Shown here: positions 3,096-23,475 of the stretch, in pieces
Position numbering within the stretch: position 1 is the stretch's first letter
How the letters are laid out: each line of letters opens with the position of its first letter
Source: Promethearchaeota archaeon
GTDB lineage: Archaea > Asgardarchaeota > Lokiarchaeia > Sigyniarchaeales > SOKP01
Reading direction: 5' to 3'
DNA length: 23,475 bases
NCBI GenBank assembly: GCA_018238625.1
Contig: JABCSY010000062.1
Location: forward strand, 1-23,475
Made by a program: the position numbers and the translations under genes
The notes under the pieces: model-generated
The model's input: only the letters and a program-made list of their open reading frames with translations
Told to the model about the DNA's origin: nothing
The model's database searches: none

Positions 3096-3758
3096 GTTAG
3101 CATAGATTGGGAGCGTGCTGAATTGGCACCGCAAAAAAACCAGAAGGTAGAGGGTAGAATCTTATTAGATTTACGCGCAAAAATTAATGAATTAGAAAGA
3201 GACTTAGTTAAGTACAAAGAAGATCTAAGAAACAAAATAGAAGTTTTAAAAGAAACTCAAAATAAATTAAGTGGTAGAGAAAAAAGCCTTGTCAAAATTA
3301 GTGAAAAGTTTTCATCAGCTAAAAAGAATTTAGACGGTGTTTCTGAGGATAAATTAAATGTTGATATAGAATTAACAAGATTAAAGCCAAAATATGACGA
3401 AATTAAAGAAAAAGCGTTAAGAGCAAACGAAAATATTGAAAGATTAGAAAGTGAATTGAGGTTTTCGACAGAAAAAGTAGCCGAGATGGAACAAAAATTA
3501 ATATTCAAAGAAAAAGAGATAAAAAACAATAAAAACGATATGGAAAAAAGAAAAAACGAAATTGATGTCTTAAACGGAAAATTCAAAGAGAATCGAGAAG
3601 AAACAAAGGAATTGATTGATAAAATAAAATCTCTTGAAACTCAGCTTTCAGAAGTTAAAACATCACCTATGATTTTGGAACGAATAAGAGACGTAATGAT
3701 GCATAAAGGCTTTCTTGCCGATAGGGAACTCGATCTTATATTTAAGGAATTTGAGTAA
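3096..3758 (+). CDS. Coiled-coil protein, paralog A (start extended upstream of the TTG at 3123 in the ORF track)
   Basis: Long K/E-rich heptad region. In-frame upstream codons encode V-S-I-D-W-E-R-A-E, which align without gaps to the N-terminus of paralog B. C-terminal motif MMHKGFLADREL. Confidence 0.8.
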   Translation, partial: VSIDWERAELAPQKNQKVEGRILLDLRAKINELERDLVKYKEDLRNKIEVLKETQNKLSGREKSLVKISEKFSSAKKNLDGVSEDKLNVDIELTRLKPKYDEIKEKALRANENIERLESELRFSTEKVAEMEQKLIFKEKEIKNNKNDMEKRKNEIDVLNGKFKENREETKELIDKIKSLETQLSEVKTSPMILERIRDVMMHKGFLADRELDLIFKEFE

Positions 3759-3913
3759 TATAAGGATATTTTATAAATTTTTTATCTTGAAATCTATTTT
3801 TAAACTTGAATATTTACGATTAAAATATTAACTTGAAAAGATTAAATATCTTGTAGCATAAAAATATTAATATAAAAAATACAATAAAAAAAATTCGTAA
3901 TGGTGTGAGAAGT

Positions 3914-4666
3914 ATTTCGGTAGATTGGTCAAAAGCAACCGAGAAACCTGATAAAAAGCAAGCCGTAGAGGGGCGTTTTTTATTAGATCTTAGGTCAAAA
4001 ATTGATGATTTGGAACAAAAACTAAAACAAAAGGAACAAAAAATAGAGAAGTTATCTAAGGAACTAAATGGTACCAAGGAAAAATTATCAGAAAAAGAAA
4101 AAGATTTAACTGAAAAAATTCAAGAATTATCGAAGACTAAAATAGAAATAACCGCTATAAAAGAAGATTTAACCAATTATGAAGCAGAAATTAATAATTT
4201 AAAATCAAACAAATCTAGCTTAGAGCAGAATTTAGAAGCTGATAACGAAAAAATAAGAGATTTCGAAAGCAAATTAGATAATACCTTGAAGAAATTAGAG
4301 GAGTTAGAACCAAAAGTCGGGGGTCTAAAGGAAGACTACGAACAAAAAGAAAGAGAGCTCGAGGGCGTTAAAAAAGATCTACAGCAAACAATTTCAGATA
4401 AATATATTGAGATTGAAAGTTTGAAAAACGAATTGACTGACCAGATTAACACTAAGGAAAGTCAAATAATAGACGCCAAAAATGACCTTGAGGCAAAAAA
4501 CAAAGAAATTGAGGCGATTGAACTTAAAATTAATTCTTTAGAGGATTATATTGAAGAATCAAAAGGGGCGCCCCAAGTTATAGAAGGAATCAAGGAACTT
4601 ATGTCCCACAAAGGCTTTTTGAGTGACAAAGAGTTAGAAGACATCATCGACAAACATCAAGAATAA
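3914..4666 (+). CDS. Coiled-coil protein, paralog B (start either GTG 3905 or ATT 3914)
   Basis: Heptad-rich ORF with N-terminal motif SVDWSKA...VEGRFLLDLRSKI and C-terminal motif MSHKGFLSDKEL, both shared with paralog A. Confidence 0.8.
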   Translation: MSVDWSKATEKPDKKQAVEGRFLLDLRSKIDDLEQKLKQKEQKIEKLSKELNGTKEKLSEKEKDLTEKIQELSKTKIEITAIKEDLTNYEAEINNLKSNKSSLEQNLEADNEKIRDFESKLDNTLKKLEELEPKVGGLKEDYEQKERELEGVKKDLQQTISDKYIEIESLKNELTDQINTKESQIIDAKNDLEAKNKEIEAIELKINSLEDYIEESKGAPQVIEGIKELMSHKGFLSDKELEDIIDKHQE

Positions 4667-14361: not shown

Positions 14362-15651
14362 ATGATTTTTGTTAGCTTACTAATTAGTGTAAAAAGAATG
14401 TTTAATAGATTTTGGGAAGAGAAAATATTCCGAATCGCTATTTTACTTCATTTATTTTATTACCTTTTATCAATAATCTTGTTTTTTACGGTTCTTTCCG
14501 AAAAGAACGATTTTTTAATATTTTACGAATCAGGCAAGATTTTCCTCAATGACATTAACAATCTTTATAATCAAACGTATTATCTTTGGGATTTTCGATA
14601 CTTTCCTTTATCGGCACTATTCTTTGTTCCTTTTTCACTTATAGATTTTAGATTAGCGTTTGTATTGTTTAATACGCTAAATTTATTTTTGAATTTTCTA
14701 ATTATCATGCTTTTATATAAGATAATTAAAAGAGTTCGCGGAAAAGACCACGAACAAAACGATAAAAGAATAATACTCTATATCAGTATATATTTAATGG
14801 GAGTGCCTCACGTTTTAAACTACATCTACGGGCAGATCAATTTGTTTATCACTTTGTTTATTTTAATTTCCTTGATAATTTTTCTTACCTATAAAAGCAA
14901 TGTTTGGCAGTTTATCGGGAGCTTTATCTTAGGTGTTAGTATTATAATTAAACCAACATCGATCTTCCTTATCCCTTTCTTGTTAATATTACATTTTGAC
15001 TTAGAAAAAAGAAAGCTTAAAATCGACTTTTCTAAAAGTTTTATAAGAATTTTTGGTGTAATATTACCTGTTTTGTCTAATTTCGTTCTATTTGCCGCTT
15101 TTCCTAAATTATGGGAAGACTTTTTGGAAACTAACTTTACCGGAAGCAATCCTATTGCTTTAAATTTTTCTTACAGTTTAACAAAACTCATTACTAACTT
15201 CTGTTATCTTTATAATATTCCATTTAGTCAATTAACGATACTTCTTGTCTCAGTTGGGTTTTTTGGGGGTATTGGATTTATTATTTTCGTTTCAATAAGG
15301 AGAAAACAAAATTCTATCTTATATGGTTATACATTTGGTATTTTAATTATGCTTCTTACGTATTTTGATTCTTGGGACCATCATCTCTTAAACTTGACGC
15401 CTCTTTTGATAATTATTATCTTTAATCTCCCGAGAAAGACTGAGTTGTTGAATTACATAAAACCTAGTCTATTCTTCTTCAATTTTTTTGATATCCTATT
15501 TGTTGGAATTTGGTATTTGACGTATCCTCTATTTCCCTATAATTTTGTTGGCACATTTTTTCTAATCTTAGCACTTTTCGGAGTTATAAAATACTGTTTA
15601 GTTAAAAATAAAAAATCAAAAAATGTTGAGGTTGGTATCCATGAAGGTTAG
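14362..15651 (+). CDS. GT87/DUF2029-like polyprenol-phosphate-sugar glycosyltransferase (GT-C), paralog 1
   Basis: NDFLIFY after TM1, FRYFPL, GQIN, IIKP and DSWDHH motifs, about 10 TM helices. Alternative start at 14398. Confidence 0.8.
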   Translation: MIFVSLLISVKRMFNRFWEEKIFRIAILLHLFYYLLSIILFFTVLSEKNDFLIFYESGKIFLNDINNLYNQTYYLWDFRYFPLSALFFVPFSLIDFRLAFVLFNTLNLFLNFLIIMLLYKIIKRVRGKDHEQNDKRIILYISIYLMGVPHVLNYIYGQINLFITLFILISLIIFLTYKSNVWQFIGSFILGVSIIIKPTSIFLIPFLLILHFDLEKRKLKIDFSKSFIRIFGVILPVLSNFVLFAAFPKLWEDFLETNFTGSNPIALNFSYSLTKLITNFCYLYNIPFSQLTILLVSVGFFGGIGFIIFVSIRRKQNSILYGYTFGILIMLLTYFDSWDHHLLNLTPLLIIIIFNLPRKTELLNYIKPSLFFFNFFDILFVGIWYLTYPLFPYNFVGTFFLILALFGVIKYCLVKNKKSKNVEVGIHEG

Positions 15652-16391: not shown

Positions 16392-17705
16392 ATGGATTTT
16401 AAAGCGTGTTTTACCCAAGTTAAGAATCGTTCTGTAGAACTATGGAAATTTAAATTCTTCAGATATTGTATATTTCTTCACATGTTTTATTTTATATTTT
16501 CAATACTTATGACATTGTTCGTATTCAGAGAGCAAAGTGATTTCTACGTATATTATAGAGTTGGAGAAATTTTTGTTAACGATCCTGCTAACCTTTACAA
16601 CCCTGCAAATTATGCCGACATTTGGCCTTTTAGGTATCTCCCTCTTTCTGCGCTACTCTTTGTTCCTTTTTATCTAATGGGTTTTGAATTAGGTTTTATT
16701 GTTTTTAATTTAATCAATTTAATTTTAAACGTTTTAATCTCTATAATTCTTTATAAATTAATACTCTTGATTAGAAGAGAAGATCACGAGAAAGAAGAAA
16801 ATAGAGTAATACTGTACATTTGTCTTTACCTTATTGGATTACCGCAGGTATTTAATTACATATTAGGTCAAATTAATTTATATGTTACTCTACTTATTTT
16901 ATTATCTCTGTTTATTTTTCTTAAATATAACGATATCAAATGGCAATTTCTCGCAAGTTTTCTATTAGGAATAAGTATTATAATTAAACCAACGACTATA
17001 TTTATGATTCCCTTCCTAATTATGCTCAATTACGACTATAATAATAAAAAATTAAAACTTGATTTTACTAAAAGCTTTCTTAGATTAATTGGCGTTGTAT
17101 TGCCTTTGTCTCTAAACTTTATAATGTTTTTAATTTACCCGAGTTTATTAAGTGGGTTTTTAGAAACTAATTTTACAGGTTCTGAAACAGTGCTTTTAAA
17201 CCATTCTTTTAGCATTACAAAACTCATATCTAATTTCTTCTTATATATTGGGGTTCCCGCTACCGAATTAAGCGTTTTACCTATTTTTTTAAGCGTTTTG
17301 CTCATTTTGGGAAGCATAAGTTTAATTCTCTATGTATTTAGAAGATTTTACATAAACAGTTTAATTTACGGATACACTTTCGGTATTTTAATAATGTTCC
17401 TTGCTTACTTTGACTCATGGGACCATCATCTTCTCAATTTAACGCCGCTTTTAGTTGTTATATTGTTTAATTTGCCAAGAAACTCAGAATTAACCAGAAA
17501 GTATATTAAACCGGGCTTTTTCTTTTTGAGCTTCTTTGATTTGGTTTTTATGGGAATATTTTGGCTAACAAAACTGTTTTTTACTGATATGTTTTTTCCA
17601 TTTAATTTCGCTTCAACAATATTTTTAATTCTTATTTTTGTAGGGATTGGTCATTATTGCTTACAAAAGGAAAATAACGAAAAATCATATAAGGTAAAAG
17701 CTTAA
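16392..17705 (+). CDS. GT87/DUF2029-like glycosyltransferase (GT-C), paralog 2
   Basis: SDFYVYY, FRYLPL, GQIN, IIKP and DSWDHH motifs. Collinear with paralog 1, with long identical blocks (ETNFTGS, YFDSWDHHLLNLTPLL). Confidence 0.8.
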   Translation: MDFKACFTQVKNRSVELWKFKFFRYCIFLHMFYFIFSILMTLFVFREQSDFYVYYRVGEIFVNDPANLYNPANYADIWPFRYLPLSALLFVPFYLMGFELGFIVFNLINLILNVLISIILYKLILLIRREDHEKEENRVILYICLYLIGLPQVFNYILGQINLYVTLLILLSLFIFLKYNDIKWQFLASFLLGISIIIKPTTIFMIPFLIMLNYDYNNKKLKLDFTKSFLRLIGVVLPLSLNFIMFLIYPSLLSGFLETNFTGSETVLLNHSFSITKLISNFFLYIGVPATELSVLPIFLSVLLILGSISLILYVFRRFYINSLIYGYTFGILIMFLAYFDSWDHHLLNLTPLLVVILFNLPRNSELTRKYIKPGFFFLSFFDLVFMGIFWLTKLFFTDMFFPFNFASTIFLILIFVGIGHYCLQKENNEKSYKVKA

Positions 17706-18484: not shown

Positions 18485-18699
18485 GACCCTATCGGGTTTA
18501 TTGGATTTATAGCTTTTTAAGTGATTAAATATAAACTAATGGTTTTTTTATATTTTTGATTCAAAAAATTAAAAACTTATCAATAATTCAAAAAAATCAA
18601 TCAATCAATAGTTGGTCTCATAAAATAATTTATATCAGTATTTTTATATACATTACAAACAAATCTATATTTTTCAACAATTATGGAGATAATTAGATA

Positions 18700-21069
18700 A
18701 TGGAATGCAAATTCTGCGAAAGTCAAAACATTTCTTTTACCTGTGAGAAATGCAAGTCAAGTTTTTGCATCCATCATATGGCTACAACGGAAAGCTGGCT
18801 CTGTAAAAAGCATGGAATACACTATTCAAAAGCAAGCGCCGCTGAAAAGTTTTATAAATGTACCGTTATTGAAAATAGTACGTGCCCTGAGTGCGAAGCG
18901 CTTTTAAGGTTAGAGAGACTGTCGTCTGGTCAATATTATTTAGAGTGCACGGATGAAACTTGTGCCTGGAACTCCTATTTAAAATCCCCCGGCTTATTTT
19001 TTCCTACTAAAGAACAATTAGCAAGAGAAGCAACTAAGTATAATTTAATTAAAGGATATCGGTTAAATTTATGTCGTAGGTCTTTAAAAAGGATAATCGG
19101 AAAAGAAGTTTGTCCTAATTGCTTTTTAGAATTTTTAAAGAGAGCACCAATCGCTAACTTCTCTACGATTATAGAGTCTTTTAATATATCCGCCCAACAA
19201 ATGATAAAATTAATTAATCGATACATCGACGAAGAGCGAATATATGGCATAATTGATCAGAAGGACCAAATGTTTTATTACATTTCGTACGAGATGAGAG
19301 AAAAAATTCTTTCAAAAATACAAAATAAGGGTATTTTGAAAGTAGCTGATTTAGCCGCCATGCTTGACATGAGTTCTGAAATAGCCATTAAAGTCATATA
19401 TAAATTAATAAGTCAATTTCAGATAAAAGGTTCATTCTCACAAACTAAGCATTTTTATTACACTCAAAAACATATTATGGATAATTTAATCAAAGAAATA
19501 AATAAAAAGGGAAGGATTTCGTTAGATAAGCTTGCGAAAGTTTTCGATATTCCAAAGGAACTATCAAAATCATTTTGCGTCAATTTAATGAGAACTAATG
19601 CCGTTACCGCGTTTTTTGCTGATCGTGGCAACGAAATTATTACATCTGATAGAATTTATAAAGAAATTAAAGATTTTTCTAAAGAAAACGGATTGTTTGA
19701 ACTAAATAAGCTTGCAAAAAAGTTAAAGATCGCAGTAGAACTCGCGAGGAAATCGCTCCACGACCTTATCAAATCGGGTTCGGTAAAAGGAATTTTCACT
19801 CAAAGAAGAGAATTTATGACGCGAAAATACCTTGAGGATAAAATAAAAGAACTAGCAAGAGCATATAGAACTATGCCTTTGAGAGAATTATCGAATCGAT
19901 TGGGGGTAACTGAATCCAGTATAGAAGAAAATCTAGCTCAATTAATTGGGAGGGGCGACATTGATGGTTACATTGACATGCATAAGAGAATTTTTATGGC
20001 TTATAGCGTCCCTCGAACACAAACAGGATCAACTCGCACGAAACAGAAAAAACCACAATCAATTGACGGGGGTAAAATTGAGGTTGTAAGGGATTACGAT
20101 TTTGAAGGTGGACAGTTACATTTCAAAGTAGCCGTTAGAAATAAGAGCAGTATGGCGATTAATAACGTTAAAGTTCTATTGGACGCACCCTCAAGTTATA
20201 AGATAAAACAACCATTAATTAATATACCTGTTATTGAAGCTAATAATAGTAGGGGAGTTGATTTTTATCTTGAACCAAAACAATGCGGAACATCGTCGAT
20301 CGGGGGTGATGTTATCTATAAGGACGCCCAAGGCACCAAGCACACTTTATATATCAAAAAAAGAGATGTAGAAATCAAATGTCCCTTAGTTTGCACTTCT
20401 ATGAGTACAATAGAGGATTGTCAAGTCGCAATACAAACTTTAGGAAACGACGCACGAGCGTTTTTAATCGCCGACTTAGATCCGCGATTAGCTTTTAGAG
20501 GAGCAATAAGAACTCTAAAAAACTTTGACACCAGCGCTGTTACTTCCCATGAAGGTTCAGATGCTAAAGGAAATTACGAAGGAGAGGCGTGGTTTTGTTC
20601 GGAAGCAAAAAATACTGGAGGGAGAATTATAACGAGAATTTACGTTTCCGAGATGAGTCAATCGTTAGAAGTAAGAGTCTGGTGTGGAAACCCAGGACAG
20701 CTTACAGGATTTTTAGCAAAAATTATCGAAATTCTCTTTGAGGAAATTAATATCATTCGGAAGATTAAGTCCGAAGAAAGGGAGAAAACCATTGATATTA
20801 TGGCAATCACTCAAAACTTAGCAGAAGTTAGCGATTATTGTATGCTAAGATGGAAAGCGCAGAATATAAGAAATAAACTACACGATACTTTTATTCGATT
20901 ACGTAAAGTAATAGGAGAAAAAGAAGCGATCTTAGGTAGAATTGAGTTTTGGTTGACACAGTTGAATAAGTACGGCAAAGACGATAAAATTAGCGATGAG
21001 GACGCCGATAAACTGGTGAACGATGTTGAAAAATTCAAAAACATTATTGCTCGAGCCATAAAATTGTGA
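18700..21069 (+). CDS. Multidomain protein: zinc fingers, five tandem winged-helix (PCI/DDRGK1/UFL1-like) repeats, adaptin-appendage-like Ig and platform domains, helical tail
   Basis: 789-aa ORF with GGAG SD. It has 16 candidate Cys/His ligands in aa 3-141, ~60-aa repeats in aa 141-436, a beta sandwich in aa 459-560 and an alpha/beta domain in aa 565-680. Domain calls are by motif recognition. Confidence 0.75.
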   Translation: MECKFCESQNISFTCEKCKSSFCIHHMATTESWLCKKHGIHYSKASAAEKFYKCTVIENSTCPECEALLRLERLSSGQYYLECTDETCAWNSYLKSPGLFFPTKEQLAREATKYNLIKGYRLNLCRRSLKRIIGKEVCPNCFLEFLKRAPIANFSTIIESFNISAQQMIKLINRYIDEERIYGIIDQKDQMFYYISYEMREKILSKIQNKGILKVADLAAMLDMSSEIAIKVIYKLISQFQIKGSFSQTKHFYYTQKHIMDNLIKEINKKGRISLDKLAKVFDIPKELSKSFCVNLMRTNAVTAFFADRGNEIITSDRIYKEIKDFSKENGLFELNKLAKKLKIAVELARKSLHDLIKSGSVKGIFTQRREFMTRKYLEDKIKELARAYRTMPLRELSNRLGVTESSIEENLAQLIGRGDIDGYIDMHKRIFMAYSVPRTQTGSTRTKQKKPQSIDGGKIEVVRDYDFEGGQLHFKVAVRNKSSMAINNVKVLLDAPSSYKIKQPLINIPVIEANNSRGVDFYLEPKQCGTSSIGGDVIYKDAQGTKHTLYIKKRDVEIKCPLVCTSMSTIEDCQVAIQTLGNDARAFLIADLDPRLAFRGAIRTLKNFDTSAVTSHEGSDAKGNYEGEAWFCSEAKNTGGRIITRIYVSEMSQSLEVRVWCGNPGQLTGFLAKIIEILFEEINIIRKIKSEEREKTIDIMAITQNLAEVSDYCMLRWKAQNIRNKLHDTFIRLRKVIGEKEAILGRIEFWLTQLNKYGKDDKISDEDADKLVNDVEKFKNIIARAIKL
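19120..20007 (+). repeat. Five protein-level winged-helix repeats of about 60 aa (180 nt)
   Basis: GILKVADLA (aa 211), GRISLDKLA (271), GLFELNKLA (331) and RTMPLRELS (390). Wings IYGIID (181), IKGSFS (242), VTAFFA (302), VKGIFT (362) and IDGYID (421). Confidence 0.8.
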
Positions 21070-21155
21070 TTATTTTTTCTAAAAACATTTATAAGTGTTA
21101 TGGCGAATTTATATTATTAAGATAGAAGAAGAGAAAAAATAAAAAGTGGAAAATT

Positions 21156-21581
21156 ATGCCAATAATTTCATTCTCAATTAATGAAAACCTAAAGCAATTT
21201 ATTAATAAACTAGTATCGAAAAATCAATACGAAAACAAATCTAAATTAATAAGAGATGCCTTATTAAGGCTAATGTCAGATATAGAGTTCTCAAATTTAG
21301 AGTCACAGGGAGAATCTTACGGAGAAACAATTCCAACTACTAAAAGAATTATTGGAAATATGATAATTGTAACTCCTCACGATCCAAATATTCAGAGAAA
21401 ATTAAATAAGATTGAGAGTAGATATAACGAGCAAATAGTAAATAAGAATCAACACTTTCAAGGAGAAAATCTAATAATTTTTATGATTTTTGAAGGAACT
21501 GTACATGATTTTCAAAGTATTGTAGTTGATGTAAATGGAATTGAAGAAATTAAGAATTTCCGTTATTTGATTATAAATTAG
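21156..21581 (+). CDS. NikR-like ribbon-helix-helix regulator with an ACT-like C-terminal domain
   Basis: MPIISFSINENL...YENKSKLIRDAL is an RHH signature, followed by IIGNMIIV...IFMIFEG. Most canonical Ni ligands are absent. Confidence 0.8.
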   Translation: MPIISFSINENLKQFINKLVSKNQYENKSKLIRDALLRLMSDIEFSNLESQGESYGETIPTTKRIIGNMIIVTPHDPNIQRKLNKIESRYNEQIVNKNQHFQGENLIIFMIFEGTVHDFQSIVVDVNGIEEIKNFRYLIIN

Positions 21582-21766: not shown

Positions 21767-23475
21767 ATGATTGAAAAAGAAGACAATATATACCGAAAGC
21801 TACAACAGCAATTAGATACTTTACCCATAGGCTTTCCTGCGACGAAATCAGGCGTAGAAATTCGATTGTTAAAATTTTTCTTTACTCTTGAAGAAGCAGA
21901 AATTGCTATTAACATGCGATTTATACCCGAATCTGTGAAAAAGATTTATCGTAGGGTTAAAAAAATAGTAAAATCCGTAGAAGAACTTAAGCACATTTTA
22001 GACAGAATGTATCATAAAGGTGCTATCAATCTAAAGAGAGAGATGGACGAAAATGGGGAAGAGATACTATATCACCTCGCCTTTTTAGCAGTAGGCATGT
22101 ATGAATATCAAGTAAAGTCGATTACAAAAGAATTTTATGAAGATATCGAGCTATACTTTGAAGAGGAATACCGAGATGAAATCGTAAGCACTAAAATCAA
22201 CCAATTACGAACTATTCCAGTTGAAGAAAGCATCACGCCAGAACACAATATTGCCACATACGACGAACTAAAAACAATAATTAAAAATACAGAGAAGATC
22301 GCTATAATGGATTGCATATGCCAAAAAGGGAAAGATCTAATCGGCGAATCGTGTAAACAGACGAATATACGCGAGCACTGCTTCGCTCTAAATAATTCTG
22401 CTCAACATGTCGTAGATATAAATAACGGAAGATTTATAACTAAGGATGACGCTTTAAACACACTTAAAAAAGCGCAAGAAGAAGGCTTAATTCTTCAACC
22501 TGGAAACGCTCAAGATCCGAATTTCATTTGTTGTTGTTGTGGATGTTGTTGCGATCTTATAACAAATTTAAAGAAACTTGAACGCCCTTGGGAAATGTTT
22601 TATTCTAATTATTACGCTACTGTTGATTCAGGCTCATGTATCGGCTGTGAAACCTGTTTAAATCGGTGTCAAATGGATGCTATTTCGATGGTCGAAGGTT
22701 TAGCCGTTGTTGAGCAAAAATTATGTATCGGGTGTGGTAATTGCGTAACAACTTGCCCAGAACAAGCAATAACGCTCGTAAGGAAAGATAAGGAGATGAT
22801 ACCTCCCAATACTACAACAGATTTATACTTAAAAATAATGGATAAAAAAGATAGAATAATACTAAGTTTGACACATGATAACCAAGAAATATCTCAAGAA
22901 GAAATCGCTAAAAAAATCCATCTATCCCAACCTTCCGTTGCTATACGTATCAAAAAACTCAAGGAGCGAGGATTTATTGATCGTATTATTGGTGTGAATC
23001 TAAATAAAGTTGGATTAAGCGTAGCGATGGTACAAGTAACGTCTACCAATACCGCCAGAGTTTTGAATGTGCTCCGTGATTGCCCGTTTTTCTTAAATGG
23101 ATTTGTTATATCAGGAAAAGAAAATTTAGTTCTTAAAAGACAAATGCAAGATACTCATAATGAAATGGTTCAAGCACAGATCAAACAGGCTTCTCTAGTG
23201 AAGTCTATGAGGGACGCATGGGTTTCTGCCATATCAGCTATGAATACTGGAATGGGTGGTTTTACAGAAATTATAATGAATGCTGAGACAAATACCGCTC
23301 AAATTCAGCAGTTAGATGGTGCGGTTAGATCATCTGTTAGTGGAGCGTATTCTGCTAGAGATGCTTTTGGAAGAGTTATAGAAGATGTTGGTTTTGCAGG
23401 TTCTGAAGTTATGAATCAGTTTGGAGATATAGTAGGCAGAGGAGGCAGGCAACTTTATGAAACAGCCTATACAAC
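21767..23475 (+). CDS. 4Fe-4S dicluster protein (21767 to ~22849), continuing in frame into an Lrp/AsnC fragment and an unrelated segment; 3'-partial, no stop in the window
   Basis: Translated by hand: MIEKEDNIYRKLQQQLDTLPIGFPATKSGVE...CICQ...ICCCCGCCC...CIGCETCLNRCQ...CIGCGNCVTTCP...PPNTTTDLYLKIMDKK, then open for 569 codons to the window end. Probably absent from the ORF track because it has no stop. Confidence 0.85.
   Translation, partial: MIEKEDNIYRKLQQQLDTLPIGFPATKSGVEIRLLKFFFTLEEAEIAINMRFIPESVKKIYRRVKKIVKSVEELKHILDRMYHKGAINLKREMDENGEEILYHLAFLAVGMYEYQVKSITKEFYEDIELYFEEEYRDEIVSTKINQLRTIPVEESITPEHNIATYDELKTIIKNTEKIAIMDCICQKGKDLIGESCKQTNIREHCFALNNSAQHVVDINNGRFITKDDALNTLKKAQEEGLILQPGNAQDPNFICCCCGCCCDLITNLKKLERPWEMFYSNYYATVDSGSCIGCETCLNRCQMDAISMVEGLAVVEQKLCIGCGNCVTTCPEQAITLVRKDKEMIPPNTTTDLYLKIMDKKDRIILSLTHDNQEISQEEIAKKIHLSQPSVAIRIKKLKERGFIDRIIGVNLNKVGLSVAMVQVTSTNTARVLNVLRDCPFFLNGFVISGKENLVLKRQMQDTHNEMVQAQIKQASLVKSMRDAWVSAISAMNTGMGGFTEIIMNAETNTAQIQQLDGAVRSSVSGAYSARDAFGRVIEDVGFAGSEVMNQFGDIVGRGGRQLYETAYT
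22838..23134 (+). other. Lrp/AsnC-family regulator segment, C-terminally truncated, embedded in frame in the terminal ORF
   Basis: MDKKDRIILSLTHDNQEISQEEIAKKIHLSQPSVAIRIKKLKERGFI is an Lrp HTH, followed by VNLNKVGL...CPFFLNGFVISGKENL. The RAM domain breaks off after the SG turn. Confidence 0.8.

Follow-up and report, generated by a model that had tools for sequence, protein, structure and literature searches.

A Lokiarchaeial protein with an unsplit UFL1/DDRGK1-type winged-helix array, a predicted coat-type appendage and a Vps28-type tail

Why should the eukaryotic UFM1 ligase be an obligate heterodimer whose two subunits, UFL1 and DDRGK1 (UFBP1), share a single winged helix (WH), and what role did their scaffold have before UFM1 conjugation? 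Both questions are raised by one gene in the 23,475-nucleotide stretch of DNA analysed here (the window), contig JABCSY010000062.1 of the assembly GCA_018238625.1 from a Promethearchaeota archaeon of the class Lokiarchaeia. A single open reading frame (ORF) at 18700..21069 of the forward strand, on which all features of the gene described below are located, encodes 789 amino acids (aa) plus a stop codon, and the gene is single-copy in the 4.29-Mb assembly (201 contigs, estimated 98% complete). In the encoded protein, a WH array of the UFL1/DDRGK1 type is combined with a predicted coat-type appendage, a candidate hub, and with a Vps28 C-terminal domain, and the E2-binding helix of UFL1 is absent. 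Moreover, an intact WH stands at the position where the eukaryotic subunits share theirs, which points to gene fission. Reasoning by analogy, we slightly favour the view that the product of this gene is a non-catalytic adaptor or scaffold in the lokiarchaeial cytosol.

The ORF is not a chance frame because, in comparison with four orthologues, synonymous sites are saturated (proportion of synonymous differences, pS, 0.70-0.88) while the proportion of nonsynonymous differences (pN) is 0.035-0.19 in every folded domain, and because one frame of ~790 aa is kept in 63/68 genomes of the window's own family. The two halves of the protein were modelled separately with AlphaFold2, residues 1-439 from a 25-row alignment and residues 440-789 from a 40-row alignment, with a mean predicted local distance difference test (pLDDT) of 90.3 and 89.9, respectively. 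The N-half model contains short beta hairpins followed by exactly five WHs of the order helix-strand-helix-helix-strand-strand, at residues 139-194, 197-255, 256-315, 316-374 and 375-434. The C-half model begins with a disordered stretch and continues with a beta sandwich (~460-559), an alpha/beta domain (~564-662) and, in residues 665-788, a 50-residue helix and three more helices. Conservation and the models confirm the anatomy that had been proposed in the initial annotation, that is, a Zn-finger head, five WHs, a linker, a sandwich, an alpha/beta domain and a helical tail, and the domain boundaries proposed there (1-141, 141-436, 459-680 and 681-789) lie within a few residues of those drawn from models and conservation.

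The WH repeats are specifically UFL1/DDRGK1-like rather than generic winged helix-turn-helix (wHTH) domains. In Pfam, the whole protein matches PCI (8.7e-23, in four stretches), E3_UFM1_ligase (2.7e-18, residues 225-435 to model positions 22-235) and DDRGK (3.5e-17). In a comparison of a family profile of the N-terminal half with the sequences of all PDB chains, the top seven matches are DDRGK1/UFL1 sequences, headed by 8b9x_A (E 1.2e-20), in which profile positions 139-351 run collinearly with chain residues 14-232. The entry 8b9x is an engineered chimera in which DDRGK1 207-305 was fused to UFL1 27-200 for crystallisation (Banerjee et al., 2023). In the same search, DDRGK1 206-286 falls on profile positions 137-218 and UFL1 27-254 on positions 221-439, whereas the best other PCI proteins, from the proteasome and the COP9 signalosome, start at E 2.9e-5. 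Residues 130-439 of the window protein alone have 8b9x_A as their sole match (7.7e-7), aligned straight through the junction of the two human proteins.

The structural searches give the same order. Foldseek places 8b9x first for the array (1.8e-14, target TM 0.70) and UFL1 on the 60S subunit next (4.6e-12 to 1.3e-10), followed by the tandem-WH arrays of SelB (2.9e-6), Pol III RPC82/62 (RPC82 7e-6) and ESCRT-II (about 5e-4). VIA-align superposes 8b9x_A on model residues 132-377 (Z 15.2, root-mean-square deviation (rmsd) 3.5 Å, 241/256 residues) and UFL1 29-247 on model residues 226-435. In addition, ESM Atlas gives eukaryotic E3_UFM1_ligase fragments for the array at 0.79 and 0.76; these values are below 0.9, the level taken to count, and serve as leads only. 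Across the phylum, all of the PF09743 matches of 50-72 bits are in the ~790-aa family, in which 62 of the 68 genomes match, most of them at 50-72 bits, whereas matches in other families reach 20-35 bits and belong to other architectures. The likeness to UFL1 and DDRGK1 claimed in the initial annotation therefore holds in both kinds of search, with 1.2e-20 against 2.9e-5 for the profile and 1.8e-14 against 2.9e-6 for Foldseek, and the matches are not confined to generic wHTH regulators or to CARDB and S-layer immunoglobulin (Ig) domains.

The WH array is an unsplit homologue of the DDRGK1 WH1', the composite WH of DDRGK1 and UFL1, and the UFL1 WH1-3. WH1 (residues 139-196, 19114..19287) is the counterpart of the DDRGK1/UFBP1 WH1', WH2 (residues 197-255, 19288..19464) is an intact WH at the position of the eukaryotic composite pWH'/pWH, and WH3-WH5 (residues 256-436, 19465..20007) are the counterparts of UFL1 WH1-WH3. 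The order of the tandem PCI-type WHs is thus the same as in the UFL1-DDRGK1 scaffold (WH1', interface WH, UFL1 WH1-3), but the eukaryotic scaffold consists of two subunits joined by the composite WH, whereas the archaeal protein is one chain with an intact WH2. In addition, WH5 closely resembles the WH of PCI domains, and its residues 374-437 superpose on the CSN4 WH with a Z of 12.2 and an rmsd of 1.1 Å over 64 residues (VIA-align). The PCI proteins of the COP9 signalosome, the proteasome lid and eIF3 have this WH subdomain in common with the archaeal protein; however, they carry helical repeats before it, whereas the archaeal model shows none and its WHs are in tandem as in UFL1.

According to the automatic names supplied by one source, 'DNA-binding Lrp family transcriptional regulator' and 'ArsR family', the protein would be a multi-wHTH DNA-binding regulator. 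These names agree with the small regulators encoded by neighbouring genes and with weak Pfam matches to HTH_DeoR, HTH_11, MarR, AsnC and IclR (E 1.6e-5 to 0.3); of the latter, HTH_DeoR alone passes its cut-off for the whole protein (25 vs 21 bits), and none of its stretches passes by itself. However, the PCI, UFL1 and DDRGK models outscore these by 12 to 17 orders of magnitude, the WH arrays of protein scaffolds are the best structural matches, and the C-terminal half holds a coat appendage and a Vps28 C-terminal domain and no effector-binding domain. We therefore consider a DNA-binding regulator to be very unlikely.

Because any WH array aligns collinearly with any other, the register was tested repeat by repeat with Pfam. 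The DDRGK model gives 32.6 bits on WH1, which is above its cut-off, 19.0 bits on WH2, 15.4 on WH4 and 12.6 on WH5, with no match on WH3; on WH1-2 together it reaches 42 bits, with model position 181/188 at about residue 220. On WH2-3, position 22 of the E3_UFM1_ligase model lies at residue 225, and in the VIA-align superposition UFL1 residue 29 maps to model residue 226. Pfam, the family profile and the superposition agree that DDRGK1 ends and UFL1 starts in the turn that links helices 2 and 3 of WH2, residues ~221-226 (19360..19377). At this junction DDRGK1 ~286 passes to UFL1 ~27 without an insertion, and the loop of the archaeal protein has six residues fewer than that of the chimera.

In the human complex, UFBP1 ends in half a WH and UFL1 has the other half after its helix alpha1, and the composite WH formed by both halves holds UFBP1 and UFL1 together (Peter et al., 2022, preprint; Makhlouf et al., 2024). 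An intact WH2 located where the eukaryotic pair shares its composite WH suggests gene fission. Because a WH cannot arise as halves in two genes, the simplest account is that a single-chain array underwent fission on the eukaryotic stem. We are inclined, if only a little, to believe that one Asgard-type gene gave rise to both eukaryotic DDRGK1 and UFL1, each being one half of it, and that the break fell between helices 2 and 3 of the second WH, the inferred fission point. The obligate heterodimer and its odd composite WH would then be the scar of that event. Before the break, the scaffold would have been wired to coat-appendage and ESCRT-I-type modules, and afterwards the new free N-terminus of UFL1 would have gained the E2-binding helix, which would have turned an existing scaffold into the UFM1 ligase. 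If this history is true, the Lokiarchaeal protein is a natural version of the engineered DDRGK1-UFL1 chimera, in effect of its inactive ΔN form. Eight of the 41 relatives whose domains were scanned likewise hold both Pfam families, DDRGK and E3_UFM1_ligase, in one chain.

Several observations weigh against this history. DDRGK1 alone (8c0d_B) superposes best on model residues 303-412, that is, on WH4-5; on WH2 alone the E3_UFM1_ligase model prefers its positions 124-175 to positions 22-60; and the best DDRGK stretch in the whole protein, 200-281, is one repeat later than the proposed register. Single WH repeats are not register-specific, and the register rests on the multi-repeat alignments. 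Furthermore, a survey of 301 genomes from across the phylum recovered the full-length form only in the window's family and its sister family; the arrangement is specific to this lineage and need not be the direct ancestor of UFL1 and DDRGK1. The idea of fission and of an unsplit WH2 was not found in the literature searched, which did not extend to supplementary figures and trees that may bear on it. The unsplit WH2 and its bearing on the origin of the UFL1-DDRGK1 heterodimer are the point of this study that was not found in print.

At first glance, such an array might be expected to serve an archaeal ubiquitin-fold modifier as a functional E3-like ligase scaffold (proto-UFMylation), with WH1-WH3 activating a charged E2 in the manner of the minimal UFL1/UFBP1 module. 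These three WHs are the counterparts of those that define the minimal catalytic module of UFL1/UFBP1 (Peter et al., 2022, preprint), the genome holds three UQ_con E2-like genes above the Pfam cut-off, and Ufm1 homologues have been detected in nine Asgard clades by a structure-based search (Koestlbacher et al., 2026). However, the N-terminal helix alpha1 of UFL1, which is essential for UFC1 binding and activity (Banerjee et al., 2023; Makhlouf et al., 2024), has no counterpart in the archaeal protein, and neither do WH4-5 and the C-terminal domain of UFL1, so that the array ends at UFL1 ~254. The membrane anchor, the long N-terminal helix and the UFM1-binding region of DDRGK1 are also without counterpart, and the Zn fingers occupy the place of the UFM1-binding region, N-terminal of WH1'. 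The archaeal protein and the crystallised chimera are alike in being one chain without the UFL1 N-terminal helix, and this chimera shows no UFC1 binding and no ligation (Banerjee et al., 2023). The protein is probably not a ligase, because the chimera without alpha1 is inactive and the archaeal junction, with its loop six residues shorter, has no room for such a helix. In the genome, the best Pfam Ufm1 match, which we regard as noise, has an E of 0.16 and lies in a 43-aa frame that contains a stop. Pfam UFC1 gives no match, but the control of this search was silent in every genome, which makes the result uninformative. We consider a working ligase to be quite unlikely. The description of the protein in the initial annotation as a scaffold with a modifier-ligase-like module and a coat-like module is supported in its domains, but the term modifier-ligase-like was too strong for an array without the UFC1-binding helix in a genome where Pfam finds no UFM1.

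Upstream of the array, the head (residues 1-138, 18700..19113) is rich in Cys and His. Sixteen such residues of the N-terminal region, C3, C6, C15, C18, C23, H26, C35 and H38, then C54, C62, C65, C83 and C88, and finally C125, C138 and C141, show a conservation of at least 93% each among 123 full-length sequences. The first eight form the pattern C-x2-C-x8-C-x2-C-x4-C-x2-H-x8-C-x2-H, which we take, as an impression only, to resemble an AN1/HIT-type cross-brace. The head also holds a C62-x2-C65...C83-x4-C88 ribbon together with C54, C125, C138 and C141. All of the Pfam matches of the head are sub-threshold, with an E of 0.2 or worse (Zn_ribbon_Top1, E 0.29), and its PDB profile matches are no better than E 0.37, so that it is not placed in any family.

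Downstream of the array, a flexible linker or hinge (residues 437-459, 20008..20076) separates the two halves of the protein. Its residues 437-458 are the sole poorly conserved stretch, with a column identity of 0.35 compared with 0.70-0.88 elsewhere and a pN of 0.27-0.46 against the four orthologues, and protein residues 440-455 (residues 1-16 of the C-half model) are the only low-confidence part of that model, with a pLDDT below 50.

In the C-half model, the beta sandwich (residues 460-560, 20077..20379) and the alpha/beta domain that follows it (residues 561-664, 20380..20691) together form a two-part appendage of the adaptin/COPI/BBSome type. The first 18 rows listed by Foldseek are all appendages of AP2 alpha/beta2, COPI gamma/beta or the BBSome (1.6e-10 to 6.4e-6), and they align about 240 columns, which cover both subdomains; generic Ig folds (TRAP, ApaG, complement and GH20) come later, and TRAP, ApaG and GH20 align only ~105-125 columns. 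VIA-align, a search of 48,161 chains that is independent of Foldseek, gives the AP-4 beta4 appendage 2mj7 as the best match of the platform subdomain (Z 13.4, rmsd 2.7 Å, 118/141 residues) and superposes both subdomains on AP2 beta2 (Z 13.2, rmsd 5.9 Å, 207 residues), AP2 alpha (Z 12.6, rmsd 9.1 Å, 210 residues) and gamma-COP (Z 10.7, rmsd 8.5 Å, 213 residues). For the C-terminal part, ESM Atlas gives alpha-adaptin appendage clusters at 0.76, again a lead only. The coat-type appendage of the initial annotation is thus recovered, with AP2, COPI, AP-4 and BBSome matches that extend over both subdomains. Two results speak less clearly for it. The Ig subdomain alone fits the Ig domains of GH20, C3/complement and transglutaminase equally well (Z 12-13), and at the level of Pfam the isolated piece is below the cut-offs for GAE_BBS1 (17.2 bits against 27, E 0.0064) and Alpha_adaptinC2 (15.7 bits against 27.6, E 0.018), while the platform subdomain matches no Pfam family.

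The ears of AP2, AP-4, COPI and the BBSome (BBS9/BBS7) have the same order as the archaeal appendage, a beta sandwich followed by a platform behind a flexible hinge. However, adaptor ears sit on the HEAT-repeat or solenoid trunk of a heterotetramer, whereas here the WH array precedes the hinge. The sequence identity with the known ears is 8-13%, and the orientation of the two subdomains differs, with an rmsd of 6-10 Å when both are aligned.

The helical tail (20692..21066) consists of a long connecting helix and a four-helix bundle at residues 695-787 (20782-21060), and it is a Vps28 C-terminal domain. The Pfam VPS28 match is 31 bits against a cut-off of 24.5 bits (E 2.7e-7, model positions 89-182/188), VIA-align superposes the tail on the yeast Vps28 C-terminal domain 2j9u_A (Z 13.1, rmsd 2.1 Å, 93/94 residues), and the profile match to the Xenopus domain 2j9w_A has an E of 7.2e-4. 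A caution against this assignment is that CheA P1 reaches a Z of 11.9 on the tail, as helical bundles score high by chance. The initial annotation had described a helical tail and left it unnamed; the tail is present, and with its name the protein enters the ESCRT literature and not that of coats alone. The four-helix bundle is held in common with Vps28 of ESCRT-I, but the N-terminal core of Vps28 is absent, only VPS28 positions 88-182/188 being matched. In Vps28, this core, the steadiness-box half, binds Vps23 and joins the ESCRT-I headpiece. In yeast two-hybrid assays, Lokiarchaeota ESCRT-I (Vps28 and/or Vps23) binds Vps22 (Hatano, 2022). A complex prediction of tail residues 665-789 with the Vps22-like EAP30 protein of this genome gave a score of 0.00 and a mark of 0.32 in a run without controls, and it bears on binding in neither direction.

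The C-terminus also matches NCBIfam 'Sel_Asgard' (NF045535), and together with a SelB-like WH array this could point to an accessory role in the selenocysteine system. The full length of the NF045535 model matches residues 592-787 (E 1e-8, 35 bits), and after UFL1/DDRGK1 the SelB array ranks next among tandem-WH structures (2.9e-6). However, the NF045535 score of 35.3-38.1 bits is far from the 132-bit cut-off, the true member is located elsewhere, on contig C107 beside SepSecS, and SepSecS is present in many families without a full-length orthologue (for example, 65/76 in family f9 and 6/6 in family f21). We regard a selenocysteine role as extremely improbable, and a specific link to Sel_Asgard was rejected: BLASTP against the true member gave nothing, hhalign gave a probability of 3.9% over the last 44 residues only, and the distribution of SepSecS does not track the orthologue.

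The true Sel_Asgard protein of the genome (L017:4363-6557, 226.6 bits, 227 aa, no Pfam family) is encoded directly 3' of SepSecS, after two NUDIX genes, and its last helices weakly resemble a Vps28-C-like end. The same contig carries a 208-aa protein (L017:15021-19505) with a weak VPS28 match under the cut-off (model positions 3-150, 20 bits); its gene adjoins L34e, L14e, cytidylate kinase, an EMC3/TMCO1-like insertase and SecY and lies outside the ESCRT cluster.

If the protein is an adaptor, as we favour, the rigid WH array and the head would hold a client, which by analogy with UFL1 would most plausibly be the large ribosomal subunit or some other large complex. The hinge would let the appendage serve as a hub for partners with short motifs, and the Vps28 C-terminal bundle would provide the connection to ESCRT-II that Makarova et al. 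(2024) have proposed for such Asgard proteins. As candidate partners, a Vps22-like EAP30, a Vps25-like protein, Vps4 and Snf7 are encoded in one cluster elsewhere in the genome, and the genome also holds the three E2-like genes. Several points count against the adaptor function. No ESCRT or ubiquitin genes adjoin the gene. Its neighbours, a DsbD_2-like, a GT87-like and a NikR-like gene, are syntenic in 9/9 loci of its own family and in 0/2 loci of the sister family. A modifier partner invisible to Pfam is possible, given the results of Koestlbacher et al. (2026), and the binding partners and the mechanism of all domains are proposed by analogy only.

The client-binding part of the adaptor function overlaps with another explanation, a ribosome-associated factor, in which the WH array would dock on the large subunit and the appendage and tail would recruit machinery, for example at the membrane or the translocon. 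All of the WHs of the human complex except the UFBP1 WH1' touch the 60S subunit (Makhlouf et al., 2024), the best structural matches other than the chimera are ribosome-bound UFL1 chains, and weak Ribosomal_S25 WH matches are present in Pfam. However, the protein lacks the main anchors of UFL1, namely WH4-5, which bind uL1, and the C-terminal domain, which occupies the tRNA sites, and the window holds no ribosomal neighbours. Pfam also found no eL13, the partner of UFL1 WH1-2, although the control of this search was silent everywhere and the result is uninformative. We consider a dedicated ribosome-associated factor to be unlikely.

The fusion of these domains is already published for Asgard archaea, and the statement in the initial annotation that it was not known from eukaryotes or characterised archaeal proteins does not stand. 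Liu et al. (2020, preprint) described Asgard proteins that combine Vps28, an adaptin/COPI appendage and UFM1-ligase/PCI-like domains and predicted that they take part in ubiquitin-dependent membrane remodelling. According to Makarova et al. (2024), Asgard proteins carry Vps28-C and an adaptin appendage, often with longin, plus TPR, Ig or HTH/PCI domains; these authors propose that such proteins reach ESCRT-II via Vps28-C and act like ESCRT-0, and they describe the distribution of the class as patchy. The window protein has the same domain combination as this class, a comparison made with the text of the two papers, which does not fix its identity with the family (asCOG) drawn there. No longin fold is among the structural matches listed for the window protein, and its sole alpha/beta domain best fits appendage platforms. 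The protein family and the fusion are already catalogued among the Asgard eukaryotic signature proteins and do not represent a new kind of system; the value of this case is that it is a clean, highly conserved and confidently modelled example.

Whereas the published class is said to be patchy, the family studied here is widespread within its own lineage. The survey of 301 genomes recovered the full-length architecture in the 63 of 68 genomes of the window's family already mentioned and in 6/7 genomes of the sister family (42-45% identity). In two further families of the class, only a relative of the N-terminal half occurs, and elsewhere only the module of residues ~455-700 or weak WH matches. 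A word-indexed search found 318 proteins at E ≤ 0.001, and the best 120 listed are 735-795 aa long, 74-99% identical and aligned over 97-100% of the query, most of them from Loki-/Promethearchaeota metagenome-assembled genomes; the ORF is thus conserved as one protein. Source names among these relatives include 'PCI domain-containing protein' and 'DUF2042 domain-containing protein'. Thor-, Heimdall-, Odin-, Hermod- and Hodarchaeota names on proteins of 74-82% identity conflict with the genome survey and were not used.

An exhaustive search of representatives at 50% identity gave 502 matches at E ≤ 0.001. The 150 that were listed include three full-length relatives (40-46% identity) and many proteins of 260-2169 aa that share only residues ~455-700. 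In 41 scanned proteins out of these 150, this module occurs behind varied heads, namely double Zn ribbons, TPR, Ig, FG-GAP, NHL and BNR domains, as well as an HVO_0163-type wHTH in 10/41, and 15/41 have no Pfam match at 1e-5. This variety fits a constant output module combined with variable client-binding heads. Two proteins of ~725 aa from two other families of the class, P0139 and P0140 (genomes G240 and G297), share the Zn head and the WH array (24-27% identity over residues 2-427) and end in further WH repeats, not in an appendage and a Vps28 C-terminal domain. The head-plus-array unit is therefore older than its fusion to the appendage.

Signals around the gene were read from the letters of the window: a TATA-like TTTATATA at 18643-18650, a GGAG at 18685-18688, 11 nt 5' of the ATG, and a terminator-like T-run directly 3' of the stop codon at 21073..21078. 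Metatranscriptome contigs from three runs of two studies, 90-95% identical, cover ~18662-21398 piecewise and do not cover the upstream gene. The contigs from RNA libraries start at 18662-18697, and they fix neither the transcript start nor the strand. Because such RNA libraries may also contain DNA, the contigs hint only weakly at transcription of the gene in close relatives.

The other genes of the window are unrelated to the studied gene and encode coiled-coil proteins, MgtC, a DNA methylase, FeoB and iron regulators, a hydrolase, two GT87 paralogues, a DsbD_2-like membrane protein, a NikR-like protein and an Fe-S/HTH protein; the window has no tRNAs. The paralogous GT87-family membrane glycosyltransferases are encoded at 14362-15651 and 16392-17705 (+), on either side of a 246-aa ORF without a known family, and the DsbD_2-like gene follows; this block is syntenic within the family. 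At 21156-21581 (+), a 141-aa ribbon-helix-helix protein has a NikR-like C-terminal domain according to sub-threshold matches; its gene adjoins the studied gene in all nine of the family loci, twice on the opposite strand, and is absent from the two sister-family loci. An ORF at 21767-23473 (+), which runs off the window end, has a Cys-rich region, two 4Fe-4S ferredoxin motifs and an AsnC/MarR-type wHTH; past about residue 450 its translation looks unrelated to the rest and may be a fusion or a mis-joined frame. Finally, two adjacent ORFs of 211 and 253 aa at 3123-4666 (+) have coiled-coil Pfam matches (Fez1, CENP-F, ATG16 and crescentin rod), all under the cut-offs, and they may encode filament or coiled-coil proteins.

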